Positions 1,990 through 43,486 are shown, counted from the whole stretch's first letter. The stretch: 63,227 nt of DNA, filler included, from Catajapyx aquilonaris (GCA_000934665.2; 2 parts of 2 records of this genome joined end to end with filler, not necessarily neighbours in it), one strand, 5' to 3'. Notes: generated from the letters alone by a model not told the origin. Translations and numbers: made by a program.

Positions 1990-3713
1990 CTAAGGAGGGA
2001 AAACACATGATTGTCTACATTAAACGCTGTTTCCATAGCATGCTGGGACAAAGAAGCAAACAGACCTCAGGATGCCACTCTTTCAAACAGAGAAGTCCCA
2101 AACTTCTTATTAAAAACAGAGATGGGCAGATTTCCGTAGGTAACTATGGCAGCACGTACAGCCTTCTCACATTCCCTCACAACCTGCACCACATCATCAC
2201 TTGGGTAGCATAACCCTCCATTTGTTTTGATCTGAATTAAATAGGAATTCTCTAGAAGCTGTGGAGTTGAGGAATCCTGAATGAGACTTGTACGGCACAA
2301 AGTACAGTTTACAATAGGCAGCAGTCGCTTGACAACGTAGCCTGAAATATAGACCAGGACATTCTCGACAAAAGGGGCAAACAACTTAACTTGCGACAGG
2401 TCCAACTCCACGACTTCCTCCTCATCCTCTTCAACAGGCCTTATCCTATTTACACACAACTGTGAAACATCAGTGTCATCTAGTCCCATAACATTGCACC
2501 CTAAGTAGGGACAACACCTGCTCTGCATAGGATAGTACGATATGCGGATTTGAATTGTGAAACATTTGGATTGTTATTTGCTCCACCAGATTGACGAAAA
2601 CAGCAAAACAAGAGCTCAGCATGATCTTGTGAGCACTTGTAAGTTAATACGTATCTCATGCGGGGAGAGAGCAAGTCATCAAAAAGTAGGAACTTAAAAA
2701 TGGCAAGGAAGCTGGTAATGGTCGCAACAAACCCCACAATAACATGATGCCTTCTTGAACAGGATATCAGATTGTCTTTGGTGTCACAAATTGAGCAAAA
2801 CGGATTGTGCATGGAGAAGAAAGGAATGCACACGAGCATAATTGGAGGCAGAAATAAGAGCTTTGTATCCTTTTCCAAATGGACTGTGGCTATTGAGAAT
2901 GTCAAATAATCTGTCCATCACAAAGAAAAAGTCTGCTGTTGATGCACATCAACAAAATCTGGGTCACCCAATGCCTTCATGAAAAGGAATGAATTTGCAA
3001 CAGATGCACTTAGGACCTGAACAGCCAGTTTCACTTTCATAACCATAGATTTGAATTCAGTAAGTTTATTGGCTGCTTTCAGGCCTTCTGATACTTGTCT
3101 CTGCTGTACCAGCTCAACATACTTCCACCGAACAACACCAAATTCTGGAGATCTCACCTCTTTCATACCATGTAGCATATTCCGTACAAGTTTCATCAGG
3201 TGACAGACATCAAAGATGACATAAACATCAAGAGCTGAATCACAAGGATGAGAGAATTTTGGATGAAGTATGCACTCCTTTAAATTCTTCCCCAATAGGA
3301 TGTTTACGGCACTCTGATATTCTAGTGAGCCATCACACACAATTGAAAGAGTACGCACACCAACTTTGTACAGTTTTTCCAGGCACAATTTAGTCAGATG
3401 TGCAACGACTTCTGCAGGGGGTTTACTGACTAGAAAATACGCGACTGGCATTTTCCAATTTCCACGCAATCCAACTACAACAAACACCAAAGCATCTGTT
3501 GCTAGTGGTGCGGTTTCCTTGGCACCACTTCCATAGTCAACGTGACCCTTCAACTTACCATCATTGTTCAAATCAGCGCCTTTCCTTATGCTCATTCCAT
3601 CAAACATAAGGACAGTGTCTCGATACTTGAGGGGGTCTTCTTGCACATATGCACCGAGTGAAGTGAAGGCCATTTCAGTAAATCCTGGTTCGGCTTCCAC
3701 AGCTGATAACCAT
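1990..3713 (-). pseudogene. Degraded P-element/THAP9-family DDE transposase
   Basis: Motifs WLSAVEAEPGF, LMFDGMSIRK, WKMPVAYF, IVCDG, FDVCHLMKLVRN, KVKLAVQVLS.SVA, RLFDILNS (shifted frame), TYKCSQDHAELLF..FRQSGG.NNNP, YISGYVVKRL..C..C, GGL.YPS. Split over ORFs 2918-3700, 2501-2905 and 2067-2528 by frameshifts. A tttcag acceptor precedes 3713. The THAP domain and TIRs were not found. Confidence 0.9.
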
Positions 3714-3740
3714 CTGAAACGACAATTCTAATGTACTGTA

Positions 3741-20053: not shown

Positions 20054-21557
20054 GTTTCAAAAGTATAGGGCTAAGGGTGGTGCATGTCAAAAAAGTTTGT
20101 CCGGTCTTACTGTACCGGCATGTTTGTGATAAGCAACATTAAATTCACAAGTCATATTGCATCAGCCAGTGCAGTGGCTGGATATGTAAACGGGGCCCTA
20201 GTCACAGGACAACTGACTGAGTCTTCAGAATGGAATATGGATAGGAAGTACCTCAAGTCCTGCGTCACATCGTTGTTGAGGAGCACGGAAAACGAACTCT
20301 GACCAATACCATAGTCAGGAATCTGCACCTGCCTAGGTTCATAATTAGTGGCATCATATAGCGAAACAAAAAGACGAGGTCCATCGCCAAGAAACCCCGA
20401 TCTGGGCACCCTAGCATAACCACAGCTGCAGACTAATGCAGTCTGTGTATGGTTATCCCAGGGAGCAGGAGCATCACAACGGCAAAGGTAAACTATGAGT
20501 GGTCAGGAAGAACTGGAAAGTCAACATCAACATTCATGTGCCTTTACCTCAGTGGTTTCCAACCGGGAGGTCGCGAGCCTTTGTTAAACTTTTCTTTTTT
20601 GTAATTGCTGTGTAAATTGAACCATTTTTGCAGCCGTACAGAATGTATGTTTTCTGGAAATGGGGCAGTTGTAGAAGAGGCCGGGGGGNNNNNNNNNNNN
20701 NNGGGGGGGGGGTCGCACATTTATGGAAACATGTTTAGGGGGTCGCAGTTGGTAAAAGGTTGGAAACCACTGCTTTACCTGATCCGTAAGCTGTGGTATA
20801 ATTGAGAAAATGTGCATGAAACTGGCCGTGAAGTTAGTTCTTGTCCTCATTTTCTTCCAATGAAGGACTAAGAATAAACTATTCCTGGTGACTGCTCACA
20901 AAAAGAAAACGAAGGTTGGCATAGGCTCAGCAGAGCATTGTAACTGGTCCAGCATCTATGGGACAGTGTGATTTTAAATGATAAGTCCAAGTTCGAGGGG
21001 CACCCCGAATGCGAGTTATTTGTAGGCATGATGAAGGATTTCATTCTGACTTCTGAGCCTGAGCTGTTAAGTTCCCAGGCAAACTCCACTTTGTGTTGGA
21101 GACCATCCATGATTTGGCGTACCCAGCCATCTTTGGAGGACAGGGTTCTCCCTTCAATCCACACTTCGTCCAGATGGCGAGTATAACTTTCAGCAAGACG
21201 GTGCTTCCTTCCACATTAAAAAAAAAAAAACAAGAAATGGCGGCTGGAGCAGCAAAAAGTTCCTGTTCTGCTGAACTGCCCTCCACACAGTCCTGACTTG
21301 AACCCCATCGAAAATGTATGGCACATTATGAAGAGGAGACTGGGTCACTTACGGCCACGCAACATGCAGACATTAAAAAGGTGTATGGCAGAGGTTTGGG
21401 ACACACGCATTACCCTTGAGTGTGCCCAGGGGTGCTGTAGTCCATGCCTTCTCACATTGAAGCAGTCATATCTGCTAAGAGAGACACAACATGGTTTTGA
21501 ACAGACCCAGACGAACTTTTGTGACATGCACCATGCGTAGCCTTATACTTTTGAAAC
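20054..21557 (+). mobile_element. Degraded Tc1-like (DD34E) element
   Basis: Inverted repeats at 20054-20107 and 21502-21557; transposase relics RLA*AQ..NW....WDSVILNDKSKF, FQQDGA..H, QSPDLNPIENVWHIMKRRL. Confidence 0.8.
20550..20772. mobile_element. hAT/Charlie-type MITE
   Basis: TIR CAGTGGTTTCCAACC / GGTTGGAAACCACTG; perfect 8-bp TSD ctttacct at 20542-20549 and 20773-20780. Confidence 0.92.
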
Positions 21558-28071: not shown

Positions 28072-31000
28072 ATACTATACATTTATTACTTGCACTACAA
28101 ACCTACAAACTGCTATACTTATGGTTAAAAACCTGCTGATTTCAAAACTTCATCAGATTTTAATTATTTCCGTGTGTAGAATATTTGAAATAGGAAAATA
28201 TATCATTGCATGTCCAAAAATTCAATAAGCTTGAGACTTTGCAAGCAAACAATTGTTAAACTTGCATAGCTCGTACAGTAACAAAACTACTTGTAGTACC
28301 ATTGGAAAGCTAATTATTATAACTTTCTAAATGAGTAAGAAAAGGTTGGGGAATGTTACTTTGAACAGTTAAAAATCAGATTTGACATAAAAAGCTGGAA
28401 ATTCAATGCTCTTCCTCTCATGTGAGGTCTTCAAAACGTTCAGGTTTCTAATTATTAGAGTGCTTTTTCTGGTAAGATAACCACTTTCTTTCAATCAGTT
28501 CAGAGTTGAGTCGACTGCTTGTGTACTTTGTATTTTCTTCCTGTAAAGCGACCGTGGAAAAAAGTATGTTATAACCGAGGTCTGTTATAGCCAAATAGCC
28601 ACTTTTGCAATGACAACACAGAGTTTTCTGCTTTCCATATGCTTATAATGTACACTCCAACTTTGTTGCAAAGGTTTTCGGTTCCCTTCAACTTCCACTG
28701 AGGGATGATGAAAAATCGAGCATTAAAAAAAGTGCGAGTGAAGATGGAATGGGGAATCTTACTGAAATGGTACATGAAGCATGAGAGAGAAGCATGGGTG
28801 GAATATATTTTAATTTGGATCTTTATCCATGGAGATAATCACACATCAACTTTGGCAGCATGTTTCAAAAGTATAAGGCTACGCATGGTGCATGTCAAAA
28901 AAGTTCGTCCGGGTCTGTTCAAAACCATGTTGTGTCTCTCTTAGCAGATATGACTGCTTCAATGTGGGAAGTCATGGATTACAGCAGCTCTGGGCACACT
29001 CAGGGGTAATGCGGGGTGTCCCAAACCTCTGGCATACACCTTTTTAATGTCTGCATGTTGCGTGGCCGTAAGTGACCCAGTCTCCTCTTCATAATGTGCC
29101 ATACATTTTCGATGGCGTTCAAGTCACTTTAAACTTAAATAATATTTAGATGTCTACAAGTTTTCAAGTTATAGGGTTTTAAAATTGGGACATTCTTTTT
29201 CAATGACCCTGTATATTCCACCCATGCTTATTTCTCATGCTCCATGTACTATTTCCGTCATATTTGCCATTCCAACTTCACTCGCAATTATTTTATGATC
29301 GATTTTTTATCACCCCTCAGTGGAAATTGCAGGATCTGAAAACTTTTGCAACAGACTGGTATTGCATACTGATTAATGAAACTATCCACAAAAATACAAA
29401 ATTAGCTCACCTGCAAATTAGGCAAGATTTTTTAAAATCCTTCATTTTCTTCTGCCGCCTCCTTATTGCCAAATATACCAGAAAAAGAATTATTTTGACC
29501 TTTTCGGCAAGTGTATGTAAAGGCGCTGCAGGAAGGTTAGATCAGTGACAGGCCAGAGGTGGAAAAATCACCCCTGTTCCAGCATGCAGTGCTTACCTCA
29601 CTTCAGGAAGCTGAGTATTCAAAAGCAGCATATTTTTCAGCCGAAGTGCCAAGAAATCGGCTGTTATAGCCAAGATGAGGTGAAAATGAGTACAATATGT
29701 TACATCAGGAGTAAAAAATACACATGGCCTTATGGACTGGCCTTTCAAGTGTGTTATAGCCGAGGCTGTTATATCTAGATTCAATTGTATCAATTATTTT
29801 TCACTTTTTTCTTATGAATTTTGAAAGGATTGCAACAGCTTGAATACACACACTTTGTATACATTTCTTCTCGGATCAGATGCACGTTCGTTCATGGTGA
29901 AACTGAAGCATAATTATGTCGCTGTTATCAGTTGTTCTTATATCAGTCTGAAATTAAAATTTCAGTATACCCTTTTTGGGTATTAGCTGTGAAAGTTTCA
30001 AGGTCAGAACTTGATAACATCTTGCTTATAATGTCATTTTATAGTGTGAAGATATTGCCACAAATTTTTAATCTGACAGCATTTTTTATTAGATATAGCA
30101 ATTTTTAGCCTCCTATACCGTTCTGAGTAGTTATTATACAATAAAATATTTTGAAAAGCAAATTGTGCACTAATTGACTATCTGGACTCTGTGGTAGCCA
30201 TTTTCTCCCCAATTTTGCCTAGCCATAACTCAAGAAACTGTAAGAGCTAGGAAGCTGAAACTTTCAGGACTTGAGTTTCCCAGTTCACAGTTTACACTTG
30301 AAAAATTGCAAGAAAATTTGAGATGGTGAGTGCAGTGGTGGAAATTAATGGAGAAGCACAAGTTTCGCCGCAGAGTTTTCCCTCTACATGAAGCAGCTTC
30401 ATATGGAGGGAAAACTCTGCCAGAAGGCAACACTTGTACTTCTCCATAAATTTCCACCACTATGCAGTACCAGTTTCATTTTTAGATTAATGAACTGATG
30501 TGAAATGACCCAATAGAATTGTCTGTACATGGCGATGCTTTTGTGGCAGCTATTTCTACATACCGTACTTATTGTTACCAACAAATTTTGCATAAAGGGG
30601 AATATTAATAGTGTATTATTATGCAGATATAGATTTTGCAGTAGAATTTGGCTTGCCTAAATCCAGGTTGCATTTGAATAATTTTCTTGTAAGAATGTAA
30701 GATTGATTTCATGTTATCAATATTACAGGGACTCGACATCAGAACTGTTTGCTTTCGGTATGAAGGTCAACCCATACTGGATAAGGACACACCAATCACC
30801 CTTAACATGTTGGAAAACGATTTTATTGAAGCATTCCAGGAGCAGTTTGGTGGATGAGGGGTATAAATGTTGTGTGGAGTTCAGCATGGGTGTGTGTGTG
30901 TGTCAGTTTGAGAGATCAGGTCTTGACTAAGGTCTGGGGACGGAAGTCTGTGGTTTTACTGTAGCTGTGGGGACCAGTTCCAATTGTGGGGACATTTGTC

Positions 31001-31574
31001 GGTCCCCACAGTCTCACACACGCGAAGTGTACCATTACAGTGGGGACATGTGTAAATTAGTGGGGACATGTCCCCACTATTTTCATTTGTAGGGTTTCAC
31101 AAAAGTCCATTTTTCTCAGCCTAGGTTACTTAGGGTAGGGTAGGTTAGGTAGGGTAGGTTAGGTTAGGTTAGGTTAGATCAGTTTACACTCGCAGTGAAA
31201 AGTGATCAATGTCCGTCCCCGCACGCCATAGTCAAGACAAGAGCGATCGTGTGAGTGTAAGTGTGAAAATTTAATTGTAAATAAATATTTCCATAAAATA
31301 CTTGTTGAGAAGGTAAACGGACAACTCCTGGATCTTAGCATAAGATTCAATAGATCACGTATGACGTTATGTCATGGAAGAGCTTGTTGAATTCAATCAC
31401 AGTCTAAAGGGTGGTATCCACTGCTCAATATCAAGGGGTTTCAACCCGTTCAACCGCTTGAATCAACCCCTTGAGCGGGCTTGAACCGAGTAGAGCACGA
31501 CTCTACTTGATTCAACCCCTTGATCCAATAATGGGTCGAATCAAGTAGGGCCGTGCTCTACTCGATTCAAGCCC
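28072..31574. repeat. Right arm of the large inverted duplication (runs into the gap)
   Basis: Reverse complement of 16905-22352, lacking about 19180-21293 and carrying an extra insertion at 30914-31248. Confidence 0.95.
30914..31248. mobile_element. MITE with internal (TTAGG/TAGG)n tract
   Basis: Imperfect TIR gatc..gtcttgacta.gg..tg.gggacgga; ggggac/gtcccc motifs; taggt repeats at 31122-31177; absent from the left arm. Confidence 0.7.
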
Positions 31575-31674
31575 NNNNNNNNNNNNNNNNNNNNNNNNNN
31601 NNNNNNNNNNNNNNNNNNTTAATTAATTAANNNNNNNNNNNNNNNNNNNNNNNNNNNNNNNNNNNNNNNNNNNN
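31575..31674. other. Assembly gap with a synthetic TTAATTAATTAA linker
   Basis: N runs flank ttaattaattaa, which gives stops in all six frames. Confidence 0.9.
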
Positions 31675-31914
31675 TTGATGCAACAGAGTGATGGAATGTA
31701 TGTTTACAGGCCTGGGCTAGCTAGTTATGAACAAAAATCCCAAATCCCAGACCAAGGCTAGTTCCCCATTGCGATGGCTTATTCGAGTAGCCTACGTAAA
31801 AGGTTGTTATTTTAGACGTGAGTTTCAGAGGAAATGTGTTATCTACAAAAGTCGTGATTAAACCGCTTATATCTATTGTTTCATGATTCCTTATCCAATG
31901 CTGCCATGAACATC

Positions 31915-32177
31915 CTGCTGGAGGAGCCGTAGTGAGCTGCAATGAGGCTGGGAACATTTCTTTCTTGGATCATATCCCATACGTGGTTGGAGCAGATATC
32001 TTTCAAGTAGAACTTGCAACCATCCTGAGGGCCTTAGATTGCTTAGAACTGGTGGCAGAACAACTGACCTCCGACATGACTGAGCCAGTGCTAGTGGTGT
32101 CCGAATCCCTGTCGGCCCTTTATGCAATTTCTAACCCCGGAAGTACCCTGACAGTTAGGGTACCTGCTGAGGAGTAA
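31915..32177 (+). mobile_element. RNase H domain fragment of a non-LTR retrotransposon
   Basis: DIFQVELATILRAL......VLVVSESLSALYAI matches the LINE RNase H pattern .FQAEL.AI..AL....I.SDSLSAL.AI. Confidence 0.7.
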
Positions 32178-34262
32178 TGGGTACACAATTATTGTTTAGC
32201 CCTTTTAATGAGTTTTGCCTTTGGGTTGAAGCTATCTTGAAGGAACGAAATTCATGGCGGACCTAAATCATATGAGGAAGATTGACGGAAGGACTTCGGT
32301 GGACGGGGTTGGGCCGGGGAGGAGTGGAAGAGGAGGAGAAGAGGACAGGACCTGCGTGGGATCCCATTTCTGCTGCTGGACTTCCGATGTCTGGACCTTG
32401 CTGATTCTGATGCTGGGGTGTTGGCGTGTTGCAGTGGAAAGGAAGAAGCGGACCGTGATGAGTGTGCGTGGCGCTCACCTGAGGCGAGAGCGGGAGTTGG
32501 CTGCCCCTGTCCTTCAACAAGTGACTTGACTGGAAGCTTTATAATTGATTACCAATGTTTTTAAAATTATTGTTGTAGTTGATTTTGTGTATTACTTTAG
32601 TAGTTTAGTGTAAGGGCTTGGGAACCTTGATATGGTTGGAAAGTCCAATAAACACCTTAAAATGTACTGTCAACAGTAGTTGTGGGCAGTGATATACAAC
32701 ATTCATTTCAAGATGGAATTCATTTTCGAATTAACCATTTTAGATGAAATGTATGGAATGGAAATGAAGGCAATTAGGAAGATTTGGGAGGAAATATTGA
32801 TGGAAAACAAATAGGCCTGGAGAGTATGGTAAATGAATACAAAAGAATAATTAATCCATTTTAAAATGAGTGATGCCAATCTCTGATTATGGAACTTTGG
32901 AATTACTTTGATCTCTACTCCTTCTAAAAGCTAACTACTGTTCTCACTTACCAAGCACTAGCTTCCAATATCCACTGGCTTCCATATTCATTGCCTAATG
33001 TATGGACAGCTGCAGCATTGTAATAATGCTTACCATGTCCATGTCTGGTGTGCCAGGATAGTAGATGGCAAATGAAGGGTTGGGGCCTCGGATGATGACA
33101 GCAGCTCGCATTGCTTGATTCCATAAGTTGATTTGGATGCGGCCAAAGTGGTTGTTGGTTTGGCAGAATCAGGCAGGTGATGTCCAGAGACCAATCAGAT
33201 GCATTATCATCATTCTGCAAGGTGTAATGAGTACAGGTCATTGAGAGTGCTCATTGCCTCTTTGTGGCAATTATACATGCTTCGTCATGCAGTGACTTTT
33301 GCACAGTCACATGTAATAGTTGTTAACAAAAGAAATAGCTATGCTACTAATTATAGGTTCCATTGCCACCCAATCAAGTGTTTTGTCTTAGAAAATTTTA
33401 ATCACATTAGCAGACTACAAATTCCACCAAGATATGTTTGATGCCTGCAAATATAACCCAGAACCTTCACATAAATGAGACTGGATGAATGTCTGCAAGA
33501 TCAACATCTGTGTCACCAATCATTGCGGGCAGTCATGAACTACTGTACTTCAAATCCTGCAATTAAGTTATCATCACTTGATACAATCAAGGTCACAGCT
33601 ATTGCCAAACACACAATTTCAACCCAATCAGTTCAGCAGATGTATGTGTCAAAGAACCTTTCATTTGACTTAATTGGCAAATTAATTCACTCTGGCGAAC
33701 TGAAAACAATGTACTGTACGTAAGACAAATAGGAAGATAATGGCGAATGAAACCAATGGATTTTGTATTGGATTAATAATTTGCCAATTAGGGCCAATGG
33801 GCTAAAAGTGCTCAAGAACTGAAAAGACATTGAATGTGTGTCAGCCAAATATCGTCATTTAAATAGTTACCTTTATTGCCTTCAACACTGCACATTAAGT
33901 TGCCACTATTCATATAGTCTGTGAATAATAATCCAAATTTTCAGGTGTAACCTTACCCGCGTGCCGCAGATAGGAAATTGCTAACGGATGTCATGCCTGT
34001 GTACGTACTGTACTGTATACGCGTGTATACAGTGTGTATAAAAAAACGAACGTCTTGGGTGAAATTATGGGCAATAGGGAATAATTTCATGATGAGCAGA
34101 ACAATTAAAACACTGCACATTCTTTTGAGAGGCGATCTTGTATTATTTATTAGCTGGATTTTTTAAAAGCCCCAACGTAATTATATTTGAAGTCAATTTT
34201 TTACAGGTGCATTAAACATACAGTACGAAGTTTCAGCCTCGTAATAGTCCATTACTGCAAAG

Positions 34263-36468
34263 TTAGGCATGACTGCTATAAACCGTATAGGGAAGGCGAC
34301 CGATGAAGCTTAATAGGATGACTACTAGTGTTGGAATCTGTGCCGGCTTATTTGGTGAAGCTGAAATTGAATCGGAGAAATATAATTAGAATTATATTAT
34401 TATTTTATAAGCACTAATGTTTATTAAAATGTCATTCAAACTAGACATCGTCATGTAGTCTGTAGTTGACATTAAGTCGTTGGAAATATTATCTCATTCT
34501 TTGACTTTACACTTTTTTTAAATATCTCAAGCATTTGCAAAATATTAGCTGAATGGTTACACTTTGGAAATCGTCCCTTATTGTGCTGCGACTATTTTAA
34601 TGACATCTTTTGAATAGAGGAATTACCTGCGTCACTTCGACGATTCCTGCCATTACATTTGTAAAACCTGTTGACTCGTTCAACGTCCACCTGAAACGAC
34701 AAACCTTTAACTTGACACGAATTCAGCAAACGTTACAGTATGTTGCAGTCTTTATTCCTAATGTGATTTGCAAAATTACTCCTAGCAAGCCTATTTGTCT
34801 TTTCGCAATAATAAACCTGACCTCACTTAGACCTACTCTTCGGCCCAACTCAGTGATGTATGGATTCTTGGGAATGATGACTGGCTTTGTCAGGTTTACG
34901 GCACCGTAGTATGCACTGGGATGCAATAAGGACCCTGCATGAACAATAAAACAATCACAGGTGTACACCAGAGTAATAATTGCACTATGGTTGATACCAT
35001 ACCGTAGTCGTAAGGATTAAGAGTCGTCGCGTGGCAGATGGCCCAGTCACATATCTCAAATAATGGACGTCTGCCTATAAGCAAACAAGACTTAGATTGT
35101 GCGAAAGCAGTGAAAGTTTCTATAGAGTGTGTGACAACTCGTGTTATTGCGAGGCAGCTTGTTTGACATCTCACCTTCTGCTACATTATTGAAGTCTATG
35201 TCGATGTAGCAATCCCTATCTGGCCTCGTGTGCTCGGAGTAAAATCCGATTGTGTGCATGAGCAGACGCAACATAGCACCTGAGAAATAGCAGATTTCGT
35301 TCAGCCTCACTTCCTGAAGGCCTTTCTGCATTCCGATTGACCCGTTACACTTTTGCACTCTGAAAATTGCGTTAAAAATTCTCGTGATAACACAGTAACA
35401 TTAATAGTAATAATCTAGACTAAGAGCCTCTTTTTTTTTACTCTGGTCCTGTGTAGAACGATAAGTAGTTGTCCTCCGTTTGTCGAGGCCTGAAGTAAAC
35501 GCAAGTGTGTTCATGGAGCTCATTGATAGCCAGACAAATAGCCCTCCGTCCTTTTTCATCTGTGAAAATCGTTAGGTAAAAATAATAACGTACCTATTAT
35601 TATGACATCTTTGTTTTAAAGAGAACAGGTTTTTCACAGTATAGGCCTACTTACTGATTTTGGCAGAGATTTCGTATGGAACAGTTCCGTTTTTCCACCT
35701 TATGTTATATTCTGGTTGAAAAGAGTCTCGAGTCTGTCGGGAAGCAGTAATATAGATTGTAAAATGTCCATGTAAATTATAGGTACACTTATATTCTCCA
35801 TTACCACATTATACAAACAGGCCTAATATTGATTTGAGACGAGGTTCAGCACCAATATTAATTGAAAGTTGAAGCAATCAGCTCTTCCAACTTTCTTGAT
35901 ATTCAGTAAATAAATGAAGTGCATAATCAGATGAGTAATTTGGACATAACCGTTTAAAGTCTAAACGAGAGATGTGATGCTGTTGACGGAGTTTAAAAGT
36001 TCCGTATATATTTCAATAGACCTGGTTGAGACATGAAAACAACAAGACATATTCGGCATGAGAACTTACCTGCGGTTTTTGAACTGCGTCAGCTGCAACC
36101 ATCTCCTCATAGTTGACAGATGCGTCATCATCTGTTGCGAGAAAATAATAAGGCACTTAGTTTATACGCGCCGAAGTTGCACTTGTGTAATTACATCATT
36201 AACTGTATCTACCTTCACTTTTGCTGTCTTTGCAATCTTTTATTGTTATTGGTTTCCCCAGGTCTGACTGTTGCAGTACGAAAGAGAAGTTGGAAGCATT
36301 TAAAAACACACAAAATTCTGACTCACCATTCTTACCTCCCGAGTAAAAGAAACAAACATAGAGGTTAAAATAAGGTTTTAAACTATAGCTTACCTTATCG
36401 AGGGCTTTTCCCATGCACACTGCGGCACCTATGATTACCATAAGAAAGCAGATTTGTTGGTTATTCAT
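34263..36468 (-). CDS. Astacin-family (M12A) non-peptidase homologue, 306 aa, 10 exons, secreted with a GPI/TM-like tail
   Basis: Exons 36394-36468, 36213-36267, 36070-36131, 35655-35733, 35442-35559, 35175-35359, 35003-35074, 34822-34934, 34627-34690, 34263-34360; all GT-AG, phase-compatible, 921 nt with no internal stop. Signal peptide MNNQQICFLMVIIGAAVCMG; RWKNGTVPY, HTCVYFRPR, C.GSIG.QKG.QEV.L...C, RLLMHTIGFYSEHTRPDRD, PYDYGSLLHP, LGRRVGLSEVD.ERVNRFYKC. AATAAA at 34146-34151. Confidence 0.93.
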
Positions 36469-37626
36469 GTTGGGGGCAATTTCTATTAATTTTAAACAGC
36501 AGGTACAGGCGTGGAAAATCACACGCTGCATGTCTTGTCAGTCTAACAATATTCCTGGTTTACTTATTTAGAGGTTTCCACGGAAATGAAGCTCGTAAAG
36601 AATGAAAGAGCAGCTGATTTTTTTTATTTCTTCAATTTTTGGACGACACTTAGACAACAATAGGCCTACTGTGCAATTTCTTCTCTAGGGAATAATATAT
36701 TAAAGAGATATTCCATTTTTATAACGTGGAGAGCATTACCAGTGAAACATGCCAATAATCATTTAACACGATGAGAATAATATTGACACTTTAATGTACT
36801 CGTATAGTGTAGCGGATTTCACATAAGGCTGCCACAGTCTGACCGTCTGTCACCATAAAAACCAAGACATTAGCAATGAAATATATAAAAAAATTAGTGA
36901 TGTAGTCACATTTCACTGTTCATTAGGATGGTGTGTCGCGTGTTTGTTGCGTTGGAGCTCAATAGACTTACCCCCTTCCATATGCGTGTTTCAAAGCTCA
37001 AACTCCAGATCTGGCAATCGCTTTCATAAAAAAAAAACCACGAAACTTCTTTTGAGGTACGGTAATGGAAAAGGCATTAAGGCAACAATGTATAGGTTGA
37101 GGGGATTATTTATTCAGTATAAGTGCTCTCAACATGAAAATGCATGAAGGTTGATGCATCAGTATAGACTTACTTGTACACCACCGCACACTAACAGAAT
37201 GATGAATATTATTTTGAAAACAATATTGCATATTAGATGTTGTCTCCATTGTCATAGGCAGTTATGCAGATGGTGTTGGTTGGCAAATGCTCTAAGATGA
37301 AATGAAATCAGCCCACACAGGCATGTCAGCACGCTTTTCTGAAAGGAGTAAAGATCCAAAATGTCAGTATAATTTCAATTCATTATTCATATGCATGTGA
37401 ACTGTATTAAGTAAGATTATGGATACAGTTCTACGACTTATTTTATACCTATCTTAATATACGCGTTACATACAAAAGGCAGCACAGACATCGTACATTC
37501 AACGCAGTCGTATTTACTGCACTTATCTTGTAAGTTTAAAAAAAAAGCCTGGACATATTATACAGTTACAGTATGATATTGCAGTCTTAGAAAGTAATCG
37601 GTGTGAAAATGCTACGGTAACATTAC

Positions 37627-37846
37627 CTTCAAAATCTCCTAGATTGTAGTCAATGTCTAGTCCGGCCAGGAAGGCAAGAATAGGATCCTTGCATGCAGTG
37701 TCCGAAAAGCATCCCCTTTGAGGTGGAGTAGGCCTCCTTGAAAAATTCCTACATTGCGGCATAGGTATTACAGGGATTTGACCTTGGCCATAAGTCTCGA
37801 TGACCAGCAAATAAGCGACAATCCAGATAGCGACACTTTTCTTCAT
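37627..37846 (-). CDS. Signal-peptide plus astacin-type pro-region exon (alternative first exon or orphan paralogue)
   Basis: MKKSVAIWIVAYLLVIETYG-...-YNLGDFE-G|gtaatg. The phase-1 donor is compatible with the acceptor at 36131. GDFEG resembles the astacin pro-peptide FEGDI motif. Confidence 0.6.
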
Positions 37847-37912
37847 TCTAGGGCAGGGCAGGACTGAATGCATCACCTTGTGATGTGACGGGCTGCTATC
37901 GAGTGATATTTA

Positions 37913-37919
37913 TTTTATA
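37913..37919 (-). promoter_or_regulatory. Putative TATA box
   Basis: TATAAAA on the minus strand about 70 nt upstream of the ATG at 37846. Confidence 0.4.
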
Positions 37920-40216
37920 TGAAGCTGCTTCCAGCGTAATTCAAATTGTGGAATTTCCCAGATCCTGAACACATGTGTATATAAATAATTATGGTGGATG
38001 CATTCATATTTCAGGTGTAACCTTATTCTTACAGTATTCGGGTCAATAAGCAACAGAATGCATTGTTTCGGTGTAAGTGTTACAATGCAATGAACTAGAG
38101 GTAATATTTACGACTTATTTCCGGACACGGAATATGTAGGCGCGAGTAATGTATCTCAATGGTTCATTTAGAGCAGGTAAAATTTTGTTTGCATTAATTT
38201 CATTTTAGTGTTGACTCCCGAAAAGCACCCACACATCATCAGCTTTTTGACACAAATCGCAATTAACCGCGATCACAATGTGAGACAGGCTGCTGTTTTT
38301 TTTTTGTCCTCACTATACACTGAAGCCAGATTGTATCAATACATGTCAAGTCTAGACTAACTGTATTAACCGAAACACAGGCTATAAAACCTTGCCTACA
38401 GTAATGCAATCCGACAATCGGCCGGCAGGATTAATTTTGTCCTCGTTGTTAATTGTTGGCCACATATACCCCAAACACGTAATTAAAGGGGCACTGCTGG
38501 GTCTCACCTGTTAGTACATTCTGTAGAATGTCTTCCAATGTAATAATATTGTACAGTACTTTTTAGGTTTCAGGTCATTATCAGCGCAAGTCAAACAACG
38601 CCCCTCATGAGGCAGTTTAAGCGAGTGTCAAATGCATGTGCAGTAAGTACCACATCTGACTGACACGCACAGATATTACAGTGTGAGGTTAGTGATCCAA
38701 AGTTTGTGTTCTTGCCAAGACGTGCATCAGAGGCGCGACTTTTTTGGGGCAATGCTGGAGTCGAAGGTGATGGGTCGCTTGAAAAGTTTGTAAAAACGTA
38801 TCATTCATTCAAAAAAAAGTGCAGATTCAAAATTGCATAACTGATCTGTCGTTTGGAGTACAACCCACTTTTGACAAATTTATTTTTAAGAACTAATTTT
38901 TTTGGCAGTCCACTCGAAAAGTTTTAGAGAGAAAAGAAACATATTAAGACAATGAATAGTGTTATATTCTAACGGGTTCTTTCAATTGACACAAGTAACT
39001 TCTATTAACTTGTTCATTTACCTTGCACTAGTCTTAAATCATTCATATGGCGTAATGATTTATAATGTGTGCTGCTAGTCAACAAGCCACATCGTACTGT
39101 ACTGTACGGTACAGTGTACATTCACTGTAAATGAACATAAGAGAGTGAAAGTGATCAGTTTCAATGTATGTTACATAGGTAGTACATAGGTAACGAAATA
39201 CTGTATTATTGTTGGTGGAATGTCGCAATGAAATGACTATGTTTTAAATATGAGCTCTCCAGGCATTGTGTTAGGGGAAGTTATGAGTACAGTACTGTAC
39301 GTATATACATACTGAGGGAGAAATTTATTGCAATGCACTTTCTTCTTCTTAGTACAGTAATTTAATTACATCGCTACTATGCATTACAACCATGCGATAT
39401 AATTAAATTAAAACAACGAGCACATTACCATAATATATTTTGATTTCCATGAAATTTACATAATGATATTATTTATACTGCATAATTATATCTAACAGTA
39501 AGTCACGCAAAGGGACAACCTGGTGATTCCTTTGTATTGTTATATTTTGAAAGTGATGAACTTATTCAAGTTTCCGGTTTTGAGCTTAAAAAACGACCCC
39601 TTTATTGAAGAGGATGTTTCAACAGGATTAAATGATAATTAACTCACTTAAGTGCCCCCATTACGAGCAGGACATTTTTTTATCACCACTATCTATATTT
39701 TGTAAAATATTAACTTTGGTTCTTTTAATTCTAGCCTACAGGCATTAATTCTAGCCTAGGCATTATTGGAAGGAAATTAATGCGACTTACAGTATGCCAT
39801 GTACTGTACTAACACTGCACGTCATGGTTATGAGTTACTAATGCAGATTTTAAAACATGCAGATAATATTATAAATAAGTTATGTTGATTACATATATAA
39901 GTGGTTTTCATAATATATTAATATTTCATTTATAACTTCAGATGGCTTTTTGCTATGCACTGCACCAGAAGCGCAGCCTGCCATTTAGAACCATCAGAGT
40001 GTTGGAGTTGACATTAGTAAAATTTATTCATACTGTGTTAGTGCATAATTTCTGTGAAGCGTGCTTTCATGGGATGATTTTACTTTAAAATGACGACACA
40101 TATTTTCATCTGCGCATGGTTGCTTTTCAGTAGAGATTATCATGGACAGGTTTGCACAATGTGATCCTCCCGTATTTTAGTGCAGGATGCAGCTATGCAT
40201 ACGTAATTTCAAAAAT

Positions 40217-42043
40217 TCATGTAACAGTCGAATTAATGATCGAGGGCTGATCTTCGTCTCCTTTGAATTGGGCAATGACAATTAGATACGTAGTTATGGA
40301 TCCCAGAATCTGAAAAATACAACGTAGCTTATTACACATATTTCGAGTGATCTCGATTACAAATAAAGAAATACAATATTATTCGTTGACAATTGGCTAT
40401 GTTACTGGTATTACCAGGCGTGATGTCAAAATTCTAATTATCGCAAGTGTCAGTAAAATGTACAAGCAAACATTTCCAGCACACATTTTAGGAGGGGAAA
40501 CCACAAAGGCGTTCATTTTCTTCTCCACATTGATAAATATCAATTTTAAAAAGCGTCATTCAGAAAAAAAAACAGAGGACCTTTCCAAAATGCCATAACA
40601 AAATTTGCTGTTAGGGGCATACACAGCCTAATGGTTACAGGAGAGTATACCAGTACTTACTGAAATAATGACACCTCTTCTGATAGTAAAAAACCAAGCA
40701 GAAGCTTCCACTGTCGGGTAGGTCATCTTGTTAACGAGAGTTTGAATTTCTAGTCGTGTTTGCCAATCCAGAGTTACCAAGTTGATTTTCCTCAAACAGA
40801 GAAGAGATTTCTGAGCCTGAGCAGAGAGAATATAAGTTCATTTGAGTGCCAGGCATACTGCACACAAAGACCTGAGATGACGACCATTCAAACACACTGG
40901 AGTGATTTCCAGATATGAGAATTTGAAGTTTGAAGGTCATGATTGTCTTTTTTCCTAAAAGGTTTTAACACGATCACTGTAAGAAATTATTACCTTTTCA
41001 GAGAGTTGATCCGGTACGCAGGTGATTAGGATCAAAGCGAACAAGTGATGTATCATTGGAGCCAGAGACGTCATCGCTGCCAGCGTGGCACCCCTGTACA
41101 TCCGCATAACAATGAGTAAGGTACCTTTCATCACCAAGAACAGCATCATGTGGAGGTAAAACACAGCCGCAGCCAAGCCGAAAGACTCGTTCATGAGAGC
41201 CACAATCTCGCACAGTTCGTCGTAAGCCCCACTCAATTCAGAAAGCGAAAGAGACAACGGACCTGACTGAGGTTTGCTATCGTATATGTATACGGGTGCA
41301 AATGTGACGTGGAATGATCGAGGAATGTTAGCTGTAGCCTTCTCGATAATGTTGTTTAGAAATTCGTAGCGTTTTATGATGGACTCAGAGAAAAATATCA
41401 GTAGCAATGGCAATATGTACAGCGAGTCTAAGACTAACCGTGCAAATGACGCCGCGGGGATCAGGACTAATAGCGAATTATTTGTGTCAAAACACACGTA
41501 CATTGCATTCTTCGCGATTGTTAGAGCGAATGATATGGCAATGGCAATTGCAGATTCCCACTTAATTTTTCGATTGATTCCGTCTGGAGTGAAGACGTTT
41601 TTGTCAAAGTTGTGAAGCCTGGTCATAAGCAGATTCACAGATCCGAATTTTAGCAGAAGTATAAAGTAAGTGACAACAGTAAGAACGAAGATATTGAAAT
41701 TGGACAAAGTGTTAGCCGTTTCGAGGATATTGTCAAACGAAATGGCCTGCCAGCCTTCAACAGTGTGCTCATACACCATAAAATAAAGACAAGTGACTAT
41801 GTAACTGAACGGAAAAATTAAGGAATAAATCCAGCTCCGAGAGTACGGATGTTTTCGCGTGTCTTGCACCGGGAAAATTCCGAAAAGTCTCGCGTATACA
41901 GCCACATATCGAAAGGAATCGTAGACACTGGTCGAGGACCTAACACTGACGACTTTTGCGGCCGACATTGAAGACCTTTCTGGACAGACTGTACTCTCAT
42001 TTGTATACCTTGGGGACATGAAGTTTCTGCTTGTCACCTGCAT
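40217..42043 (-). CDS. Gustatory receptor (7tm_7 family), about 432 aa, 3 exons
   Basis: Exons 40994-42043, 40661-40816 (AQKSLLCLRK...EASAWFFTIRRGVIIS) and 40217-40309 (ILGSITTYLIVIAQFK...*). Phase-0 GT-AG introns, N-terminal RLFGIFP, YDELCEIVALMNESFG, and the C-terminal TYhhhhhQF signature. The start codon is uncertain (42043, 42019 or 41968). Confidence 0.93.
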
Positions 42044-43486
42044 CCGCTAAATGCATGCGAACTGACATGCAGACTATTCCTGCATGGCAAGCCAGTCAGT
42101 GTCAGACACATACTGAGGTATATACAAACACTATATTGACTCCATTATTGCAAAAGCAATCAATCATTCTCACCAGGGGATGCGACTTGAGATATATCTG
42201 GAAATAATAATAAAGAGGCTTCAAATTTTTCTTACGCGTATTTGAGTCTTTAATTGATATTTTGGCATTTTTGAGGTAACTTAATTAGTAGCATTTGCAA
42301 TTACTTTGGTCGTTATTCGAGCATTTTTGCGCCGTTCGCATGCGATATTTTATGAGTTTGATTAGAATAATTGAACATTGCCAGGGCGTGGTCTTGACAA
42401 TGCAGCTGTAAGGCTGCATACCTGGCGCATGCCGCAGTTCTATCGACAACTGACACATTTACATTTTAATCGCAATCCATTCTGCAGTGCGCACCCTGAT
42501 CTATTTCAGAAAAAAAGGTTGCAAAGCCCAAACTATGCCTCACAGATATACGGGATGATATAGATGGGAAAAAATCAATAAAGAAAAATGTTGGATTAAT
42601 TGTTATTGTCAAAATGAGGTGATGACAAAGGTACTAAAATGCACATCTCTATTTTCGGCTTTTTTATGTTGAGTGCTGCATTAACTCCTAGGTCAATATT
42701 TTAAATGAATCTACATTATTTCTTATCAAGAAATCGAATAACTTATATTTAAGCGAATGCTTGGAATTTATAATAATGACAGTTACATAAGGTAAATATT
42801 TAGTTCATCATTGAGTAGTGTAGCCCTCGACGTACCGTATTCTCTCTATCGGTTAAGTCAATTTTCTGCCAGGACAATAATTACAGTTCACTAACGAAAA
42901 ATCTCCCTGAGGATGATGAAATATTCAGACTTCAAATGCTCACATCCTGAAATAATTATTCCATTGTGACTGTAACACTGTCTTCTGCATTAGACGTCTT
43001 ACAGTACCCTACTGTATATTCCTAGGAATTCAGCTGTCCAAGCAGAAGTTTCCGGCACAGTACCGGTGTACAATTATCCTTGCAATTATCTTTAGTTAAA
43101 GGAAAGCAATTCTGCTTCGTGAAAGAGACGAAGCCAAACTGAGAGAGCGCACTTACTTATTGTCACGTGGCATAAGTGAGGAATAAGCAGTAGTGATATA
43201 ATTAATCTGTAATTACATTTAATTTTTGAAAGTTACGAAACGCATGTTATAGTATACCACAGTGATCCTGTGGAGAAAGTGTTATTGTATGCTGATACAG
43301 AACTTCTTGGTCTTTGAATAATAACCTAAATCCTCGAATAACCTCATCTGTATGCCCAAATCACAGGGAAAACTTCTGGAATCAATTAGGGGCTGCCATA
43401 ATGTTATCTCATGCAGAAGACATTCGTAAACTATCCCCAACAATGTTATTACGAAGAGCAATTTCTACCTTCAGGCATAACATATA

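Follow-up and report, generated by a model that had tools for sequence, protein, structure and literature searches.

Astacins, the M12A family of MEROPS and PF01400 of Pfam, are made as zymogens with a signal peptide and a prosegment that carries an aspartate-switch motif (FxGD), and MEROPS holds a class for the non-peptidase homologues of M12A. Within the metzincin clan, most known pseudoproteases are ADAMs. The astacins are defined by three signatures, namely HExxHxxGxxH, ExxRxDRD and SIMHY (2023 review, PMC9848320); in the accessible part of the same review, the word 'inactive' occurs 0 times. In the available portion of a 2024 review on pseudo-metallopeptidases (PMC11266112), the M12 entries comprise ADAMs and unc-71 only. 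Our full-text literature searches did not find a characterised inactive astacin, and two candidate sources were rejected because the match in PMC4398375 concerned a chitinase and PMC4826915 lists MEROPS classes only. Here we report on an astacin-like gene from Catajapyx aquilonaris (GCA_000934665.2) whose active site appears dismantled. It lies in a stretch of 63,227 nucleotides (nt; filler included), hereafter the window, which consists of two parts joined end to end that may not be neighbours in the genome.

Exon 6 of this gene (coordinates of all features in Table 1) matched Pfam Astacin (PF01400) on its own with 49.8 bits (E = 4.2e-13; cut-off 22.5), and exon 5 scored alone reached 18.4 bits, under that cut-off. 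The best matches of exon 6 among solved structures were proastacin 3LQ0 (E = 5.7e-11) and crayfish astacin 1AST (E = 1.9e-10), and the whole model of 306 amino acids (aa) scored 145 bits with a crayfish astacin-like protein. Alignment to 150 astacin hits placed the astacin domain at residues 77-266, over which the closest relatives of the whole model (crayfish, sea hare, and water flea) are 37-42% identical. By its sequence, the gene is a paralogue within the astacin family (MEROPS M12A).

The alignment of exon 6 with 1AST is gap-free across the motif and sets R161, L162, H165, S171, and E172 opposite His92, Glu93, His96, His102, and Glu103. The zinc consensus HExxHxxGxxH is replaced by RLLMHTIGFYS, in which just the Gly and the second His survive. 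In place of the Met-turn SxMHY stands SLLHP, with changes at a Met column that is 84% conserved and a Tyr column that is 94% conserved. All five catalytic losses named by an earlier reading of the sequence alone (hereafter the sequence-only reading) were recovered, i.e., first His to Arg, Glu to Leu, third His to Ser, Met to Leu, and Tyr to Pro. The codons of the replaced residues are now CGT, CTG, TCC, TTG, and CCC, so that at least 1+2+2+1+2 = 8 of 18 bases must have changed across the six catalytic codons. With four of the five zinc ligands replaced (all but the second His), together with the general base and the Met, the protein has most likely lost both zinc binding and catalysis. Among the differences listed for three contig sets of one DNA sample, none falls at codons 161, 162, 165, or 171, so the dead motif does not appear to be an assembly slip, considering that this sample is probably the source of the window assembly and that the agreement of its contigs with the motif is not independent.

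Loss of conserved residues is concentrated at the catalytic positions. The comparison set comprised 77 near-complete astacin domains taken from the hits, picked by similarity to the model's exon 6, and its alignment with the model had 44 columns conserved at 70% or above. The model agrees at 34 of these 44 columns and differs at ten, five of them catalytic and five others. Specifically, 1/6 catalytic columns (three His, Glu, Met, Tyr) is kept as opposed to 33/38 of the other conserved columns (Fisher p = 0.0012). The 87% retention outside the catalytic columns is ordinary for the family, in which the median is 89% (0.89) and 36 of the 77 domains are lower. The selective loss proposed by the sequence-only reading was therefore borne out in its concentration on catalytic columns, but it is not exclusive to them, since five non-catalytic conserved positions (columns 133, 136, 226, 234, and 247) have also changed. 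Columns 133 and 136 adjoin core Cys134, which aligns with Cys64 of astacin. From the astacin structure, we take the strand with columns 133/136 to line the cleft and 226-247 to shape its S1' side; if these positions are right, the whole cleft would have been remodelled, beyond the metal site.

The model retains the RW..VPY start, the motif Gly, the family-specific Glu, RxDRD, and YDY.S. Its EHTRPDRD fits ExxRxDRD, with columns 172, 175, 177, 178, and 179 matching the consensus. The core cysteines 110, 134, 153, and 265 stand in columns with Cys in 65-71 of the 77 astacin domains, and the alignment shows that the residues predicted to form the two conserved disulfide pairs are kept. Cys99, 180, 200, and 205 of the model occupy positions with Cys in just 0 or 1 of the 77 domains. 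These comparisons agree with the sequence-only reading both in the structural residues that it listed as kept (RW..G.VPY, four core Cys, E..RPDRD, YDY.S) and in its claim of added cysteines, four of which are present and rare in the family.

The window is eukaryotic DNA of ~38-40% G+C, and its minus strand between 34263 and 36468 holds exon-sized open frames with astacin-like peptides. Joined by their coordinates, ten exons yield a coding sequence (CDS) of 921 nt on the minus strand that ends in TAA and encodes 306 aa without a stop. The nine introns (68-336 nt) have GT..AG borders in 9/9 cases and compatible phases. The ten-exon GT-AG model and its stop-free 306-aa protein could thus be rebuilt as the sequence-only reading had claimed. 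Homology backs exons 4-9, and the evidence for exons 1-3 and 10 consists of open frames and splice signals only. An in-frame ATG at 36529-36531 (minus strand) precedes the chosen start by 63 nt; translation from there would lengthen the protein by 21 residues, MQRVIFHACTCCLKLIEIAPN, placed before the hydrophobic N-terminal segment. We did not find a second astacin copy in the window by tblastn, and the gene region is not repeated within it. Neither a MAM, CUB, or EGF domain nor another relevant domain was found on this strand in the flanks, which were scanned over ~4.7 kb on the downstream side and ~4.4 kb on the upstream side; the scan covered 76 frames, among them 41 on the minus strand at 29596-34162 (each 32 aa or longer) in which Pfam gave no domain at E up to 0.1. 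Because no further domain was found on the same strand near the gene, we regard the product as a single-domain protein.

Hydropathy analysis of the model gave just two hydrophobic stretches, at residues 4-20 and 281-297, and NxS/T sites are present at residues 79, 135, and 229. The N-terminal hydrophobic segment and the three NxS/T sites together suggest entry into the secretory pathway. Mean hydropathy of the C-terminal stretch reaches 2.13 over 15 residues, and a C-terminal membrane anchor is plausible on this basis. Between the astacin domain and this stretch sits RNRR, which we take to be a proprotein-convertase consensus. A Pfam family match for exon 10 was not found at E up to 0.1. No motif resembling an aspartate switch ([FYLM]xGD[IMLV]) was found in any minus-strand frame of 35733-41000, a region in which the 5' exons are themselves predicted; LFEGDI is present in two canonical relatives.

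A second version of the gene was available from contigs, not reads, of one DNA sample from one study. This second copy or allele spans exons 3-7, and the dead motif is common to both versions. It carries a 259-nt deletion in intron 3 (window 35746-36006) and small indels in introns 4 and 6. Among the 12 indels listed, none lies in exons 3-7, and three affect the final codons of exon 10. At least 29 coding differences between the versions are found among those listed, 11 synonymous and 18 non-synonymous. The listed differences in the astacin domain (9 non-synonymous, 8 synonymous) give a per-site ratio of non-synonymous to synonymous differences (pN/pS) of 0.31 (one-sided p = 0.018), and those in the N-terminal linker (exon 3 and codons 65-76 of exon 4; 8 non-synonymous, 2 synonymous) give ~1.0. 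The exon 3 linker is not constrained between the two copies. The second version may represent an allele, but it may also be a paralogue or a repeat of low copy number. At least three further contig versions of the last exon and its 3' flank (34250-34290) were also seen, with small indels.

We simulated neutral decay of the gene with substitutions only (5000 runs), counting as survivors those runs that kept an undamaged frame, both the start and the stop codon, and all 18 splice dinucleotides. With 0.05 changes per site, 1.8% of runs stayed intact; the share fell to 0.04% at 0.1 and to 0 at 0.2. An intact frame with 18/18 splice dinucleotides does not fit neutral decay as deep as that at the catalytic codons, where at least 8 of 18 bases have changed. 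The simulation, the pN/pS of the domain, and the placement of indels favour a maintained domain.

Taking these results together, we consider it reasonably probable that the gene is a protein-coding astacin paralogue that has lost zinc binding and catalysis and has been kept by selection as a folded glycoprotein of the secretory pathway, i.e., a pseudoprotease. This intact but catalytically dead paralogue is, in our assessment, more likely to be maintained than decaying. Nonetheless, several observations weigh against this reading. Neither the gene's own product nor an orthologue was found in protein collections by phmmer and word-based searches with exon 6. The exhaustive phmmer search of exon 6 against 1.84 billion representatives returned 1667 matches at E <= 0.001, the best of them 45-53% identical and none above 53%, and orthologues with the same substitutions, which the sequence-only reading had suggested looking for, were absent among the 1667. 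For the CDS in its entirety, pN/pS is 0.45 (p = 0.034 with unweighted sites), which is only mild constraint, and the at least 29 listed coding differences are a small sample from contigs of a single DNA sample. In one of three runs, the second version has 35712 C>A without 35710 T>A, which alone makes a stop at codon 72. The end branch of the model (~1.0-1.1) is about twofold the family medians (0.54-0.89), a length that fits neofunctionalisation or relaxed selection alike. Regarding the anchor, the C-terminal hydrophobic segment is short, with 13 strongly hydrophobic residues, and exon 10 is without homology support, with further contigs that have indels in its last codons (34271-34286). These observations would in part suit a young or polymorphic pseudogene, in which a duplicated astacin freed from selection lost its active site first and the reference copy is not yet disabled. 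This explanation, which we consider unlikely, draws on a product unrepresented in the searched protein collections, the long end branch, the 18/29 listed coding differences that are non-synonymous with the possible codon 72 stop in one run, the change of five non-catalytic conserved columns, and the transposon remnants within the window. However, at least 8/18 base changes in the catalytic codons point to long divergence, yet the reference is without a stop or frameshift; 18/18 splice dinucleotides and 33/38 structural columns are intact; only 0.04% of neutral runs stayed intact at a distance of 0.1; the domain pN/pS is 0.31 (p = 0.018); and the dead motif is common to the second copy. The preference of the sequence-only reading for a functional gene over a pseudogene is partly supported by the domain pN/pS and the simulation, while the mild constraint on the whole CDS and the possible codon 72 stop count against it.

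Should the pseudoprotease be maintained, as we prefer, it could still be soluble, with exon 10 unused or the protein shed at RNRR, and thus secreted rather than membrane-anchored. We rate this as possible, though on the doubtful side. If the donor of exon 9 is read through, the frame closes after a further 11 codons and lacks the hydrophobic segment, which together with the lack of a family match for exon 10, the contig indels at 34271-34286, and the position of RNRR between domain and segment would be consistent with a secreted form. On the other hand, the acceptor of exon 10 fits in phase and comes with a good pyrimidine tract, the open frame of this exon ends in the hydrophobic stretch (mean hydropathy up to 2.13), and an AATAAA follows its stop codon by 112 nt. 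That the protein is still an active protease, by way of a non-canonical metal site or mechanism, is, by comparison, very improbable. In favour of activity, it retains the second His together with RPDRD and the family-specific Glu, and pseudoenzymes are described in the accessible part of one source as sometimes relocating catalytic residues (PMC10211241). Against such activity, a Leu stands in place of the general base, the Met-turn Met and the Tyr ligand are replaced along with two of the three His ligands, and the motif shows no His or Glu that would evidently compensate.

How a maintained pseudoprotease of this kind might work can be sketched from its predicted parts. The lack of an aspartate-switch pro-motif would match the absence of a zinc ion to shield, and the four new cysteines may form two disulfides that compensate for the lost metal. 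The C-terminal hydrophobic segment would tether the protein, and RNRR could permit shedding. The remodelled former substrate cleft would bind a partner without cutting it, and through such binding the protein could act as a decoy, compete for the substrates or inhibitors of astacins, or serve as a surface receptor. That this dead astacin-like protein functions by binding is something that we purely infer.

The remark of the sequence-only reading that inactive astacin homologues exist elsewhere agrees with our census of 191 hit domains in which the motif is fully aligned. Here, 23/191 domains have lost at least one of the first His, Glu, second His, and third His, eight have lost at least two, and seven at least three (P0075, P0078, P0096, P0024 at 470-676, P0129 at 146-232 and at 308-514, and P0144). 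Six of these seven domains keep the second His only, and several have Leu for the Met-turn Met, as the Catajapyx model does. The same pattern, with the first His, Glu, and third His lost and the second His kept, occurs in the tardigrade Paramacrobiotus metropolitanus 'nas-6-like' protein XP_055354171.1 (P0075; RQLLH..NE, SILHY), which is ~34% identical to the model. A first tree, which included the motif columns, grouped the model with P0075 (Shimodaira-Hasegawa-like approximate likelihood ratio test 93). The pairing was gone once the motif and Met-turn columns were removed, and we treat the similarity to P0075 as convergence rather than a shared dead-astacin clade. In a careful mixture-model tree, which likewise lacks the pairing, the dead label needs 5 changes, and 0/200 bootstrap trees unite the dead domains. 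An approximately unbiased test under LG+G4 did not reject one dead clade (p = 0.84), in a comparison that put the constrained tree 50.5 log-likelihood units ahead of an unconverged quick tree. Our reading is that the losses were probably several independent events along a similar path, with deep tree placement that is weak. Among the dead domains, P0096 is a 291-aa astacin (PVHQLLH..EE, SVLHY) with complete frames on ~1-kb contigs of the Joint Genome Institute (JGI), and its cluster has 12 members, several of them full-length. The P0096 contigs look like eukaryote transcripts and would show that dead astacins are expressed somewhere.

Dead astacins are already present in databases and hardly studied, and our gene adds another member to them. 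It is otherwise ordinary, i.e., one divergent paralogue of a large and often-duplicated family in an unannotated invertebrate genome. It is nevertheless a clean case, with an intact structure, a loss concentrated on catalytic residues, and signs of constraint, and if expressed it would be a tractable entry to the role of the astacin fold without zinc. A more far-reaching idea, which we hold to be quite improbable, is that the gene belongs to a small family of surface proteins, specific to its lineage, that have the astacin fold without zinc and in which two new disulfides (Cys99, 180, 200, and 205) replace the metal and the cleft is rebuilt as a binding site, along a general constrained route from astacins to binding proteins. 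In the contigs, exons 3-7 occur in at least one additional copy, and the last exon is present in several forms. If true, the recurrent pattern (first His, Glu, and third His lost, second His kept, Met to Leu) would represent a general route from astacins to binding proteins, and the resulting class of binding-protein astacins would be one left untreated in the accessible parts of the 2023 astacin and 2024 pseudopeptidase reviews.

Table 1 Features of the predicted astacin-like gene in the Catajapyx aquilonaris window
Feature	Position	Strand	Description
Exon 1	36394..36468	-	ATG; hydrophobic N-terminus MNNQQICFLMVIIGAAVCMG..., signal-peptide-like segment; without homology support
Exon 2	36213..36267	-	Linker or pro-region; AG..GT, phase fits; no Pfam match
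Exon 3	36070..36131	-	Acidic linker or pro-region; open frame and splice signals
Exon 4	35655..35733	-	Start of astacin domain, RWKNGTVPY at 35674-35700
Exon 5	35442..35559	-	Astacin domain, core Cys110; alone, Pfam Astacin E = 0.0018 (18.4 bits)
Exon 6	35175..35359	-	Astacin domain with zinc motif remnant; 61 aa
Zinc motif remnant	35212..35268	-	HExxHxxGFxHExxRxDRD reads RLLMHTIGFYSEHTRPDRD
Exon 7	35003..35074	-	Lower subdomain, two lineage-specific Cys (200, 205)
Exon 8	34822..34934	-	Met-turn region and S1' side of cleft
Met-turn remnant	34918..34932	-	SLLHP; Met to Leu (TTG), zinc-binding Tyr to Pro (CCC)
Exon 9	34627..34690	-	End of domain, core Cys265; basic site RNRR at 34637-34648
Exon 10	34263..34360	-	Hydrophobic AQIPTLVVILLSFIGRL (34293-34343), 11-residue tail, TAA; predicted splice
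AATAAA	34146..34151	-	112 nt past the stop codon; possible polyadenylation signal

Elsewhere in the window, 40220-42046 (minus strand) probably holds a two-exon gene of gustatory-receptor type, upstream of the astacin-like gene and on the same strand. Its 363-aa frame (40958-42046, minus strand) gave no Pfam match at E 0.01, and the ESM Atlas returned 7tm_7 gustatory receptors in 24/30 hits with a score of 0.97; the frame at 40220-40378 (minus strand) resembles the C-terminal end of 7tm_7 (E = 0.0016, under the cut-off). Three adjoining frames at 2070-3727 (minus strand) represent a transposase gene or remnant of the P-element/THAP9 type that is split across frames, with TNP-like RNaseH N (E = 3e-34), GTP-binding insertion, RNaseH C, and THAP9_C domains. 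At 21220-21537 (plus strand), a short stretch that resembles the end of a DDE_3 transposase domain (E = 1.7e-8) is probably a transposon fragment.

When compared with described proteins, the model is nearest to the Cherax quadricarinatus hatching enzyme 1.2-like protein XP_069952150.1 (37.6% identity over the domain), the Aplysia californica 'meprin A subunit beta' XP_005092556.2 (39%), and the Daphnia carinata nas-8-like protein XP_057379766.1 (42%). Judged by these identities, the three are too distant to be orthologues. Like the model, they are single astacin domains of similar size; unlike it, all have the canonical HExxHxxGFxHE and S[IVL]MHY. Crayfish astacin (1AST; proastacin 3LQ0), the type enzyme of M12A/PF01400, shares the domain family with the model and a motif that aligns without gaps, but it differs in that the model has four extra cysteines and a C-terminal hydrophobic segment, and a pro-motif of the FxGD type was not found in it. 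Meprin beta has an astacin domain, a C-terminal hydrophobic tether, and a short tail, and the same arrangement is predicted here. Meprins are active and have MAM, TRAF, and EGF-like domains between protease and anchor, according to the accessible part of PMC9848320. This differs from our model, for which no MAM, TRAF, or EGF-like domain was found in the scanned flanks (~4.7 kb downstream, ~4.4 kb upstream). With regard to the M12B pseudoproteases, the motif of ADAM22, QSLAHNIGIISD, likewise keeps the second His only (Table 2 of PMC11266112), and ADAM pseudoproteases typically retain the Met-turn Met, as far as the accessible part of that review describes them (PMC11266112). The Catajapyx model differs from ADAM22 and ADAM23 in that its Met is lost and that disintegrin, Cys-rich, and EGF domains were not found near the gene. 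ADAM22 and ADAM23 are membrane-tethered dead metzincin domains that act by protein-protein binding, and the Catajapyx protein may act likewise.

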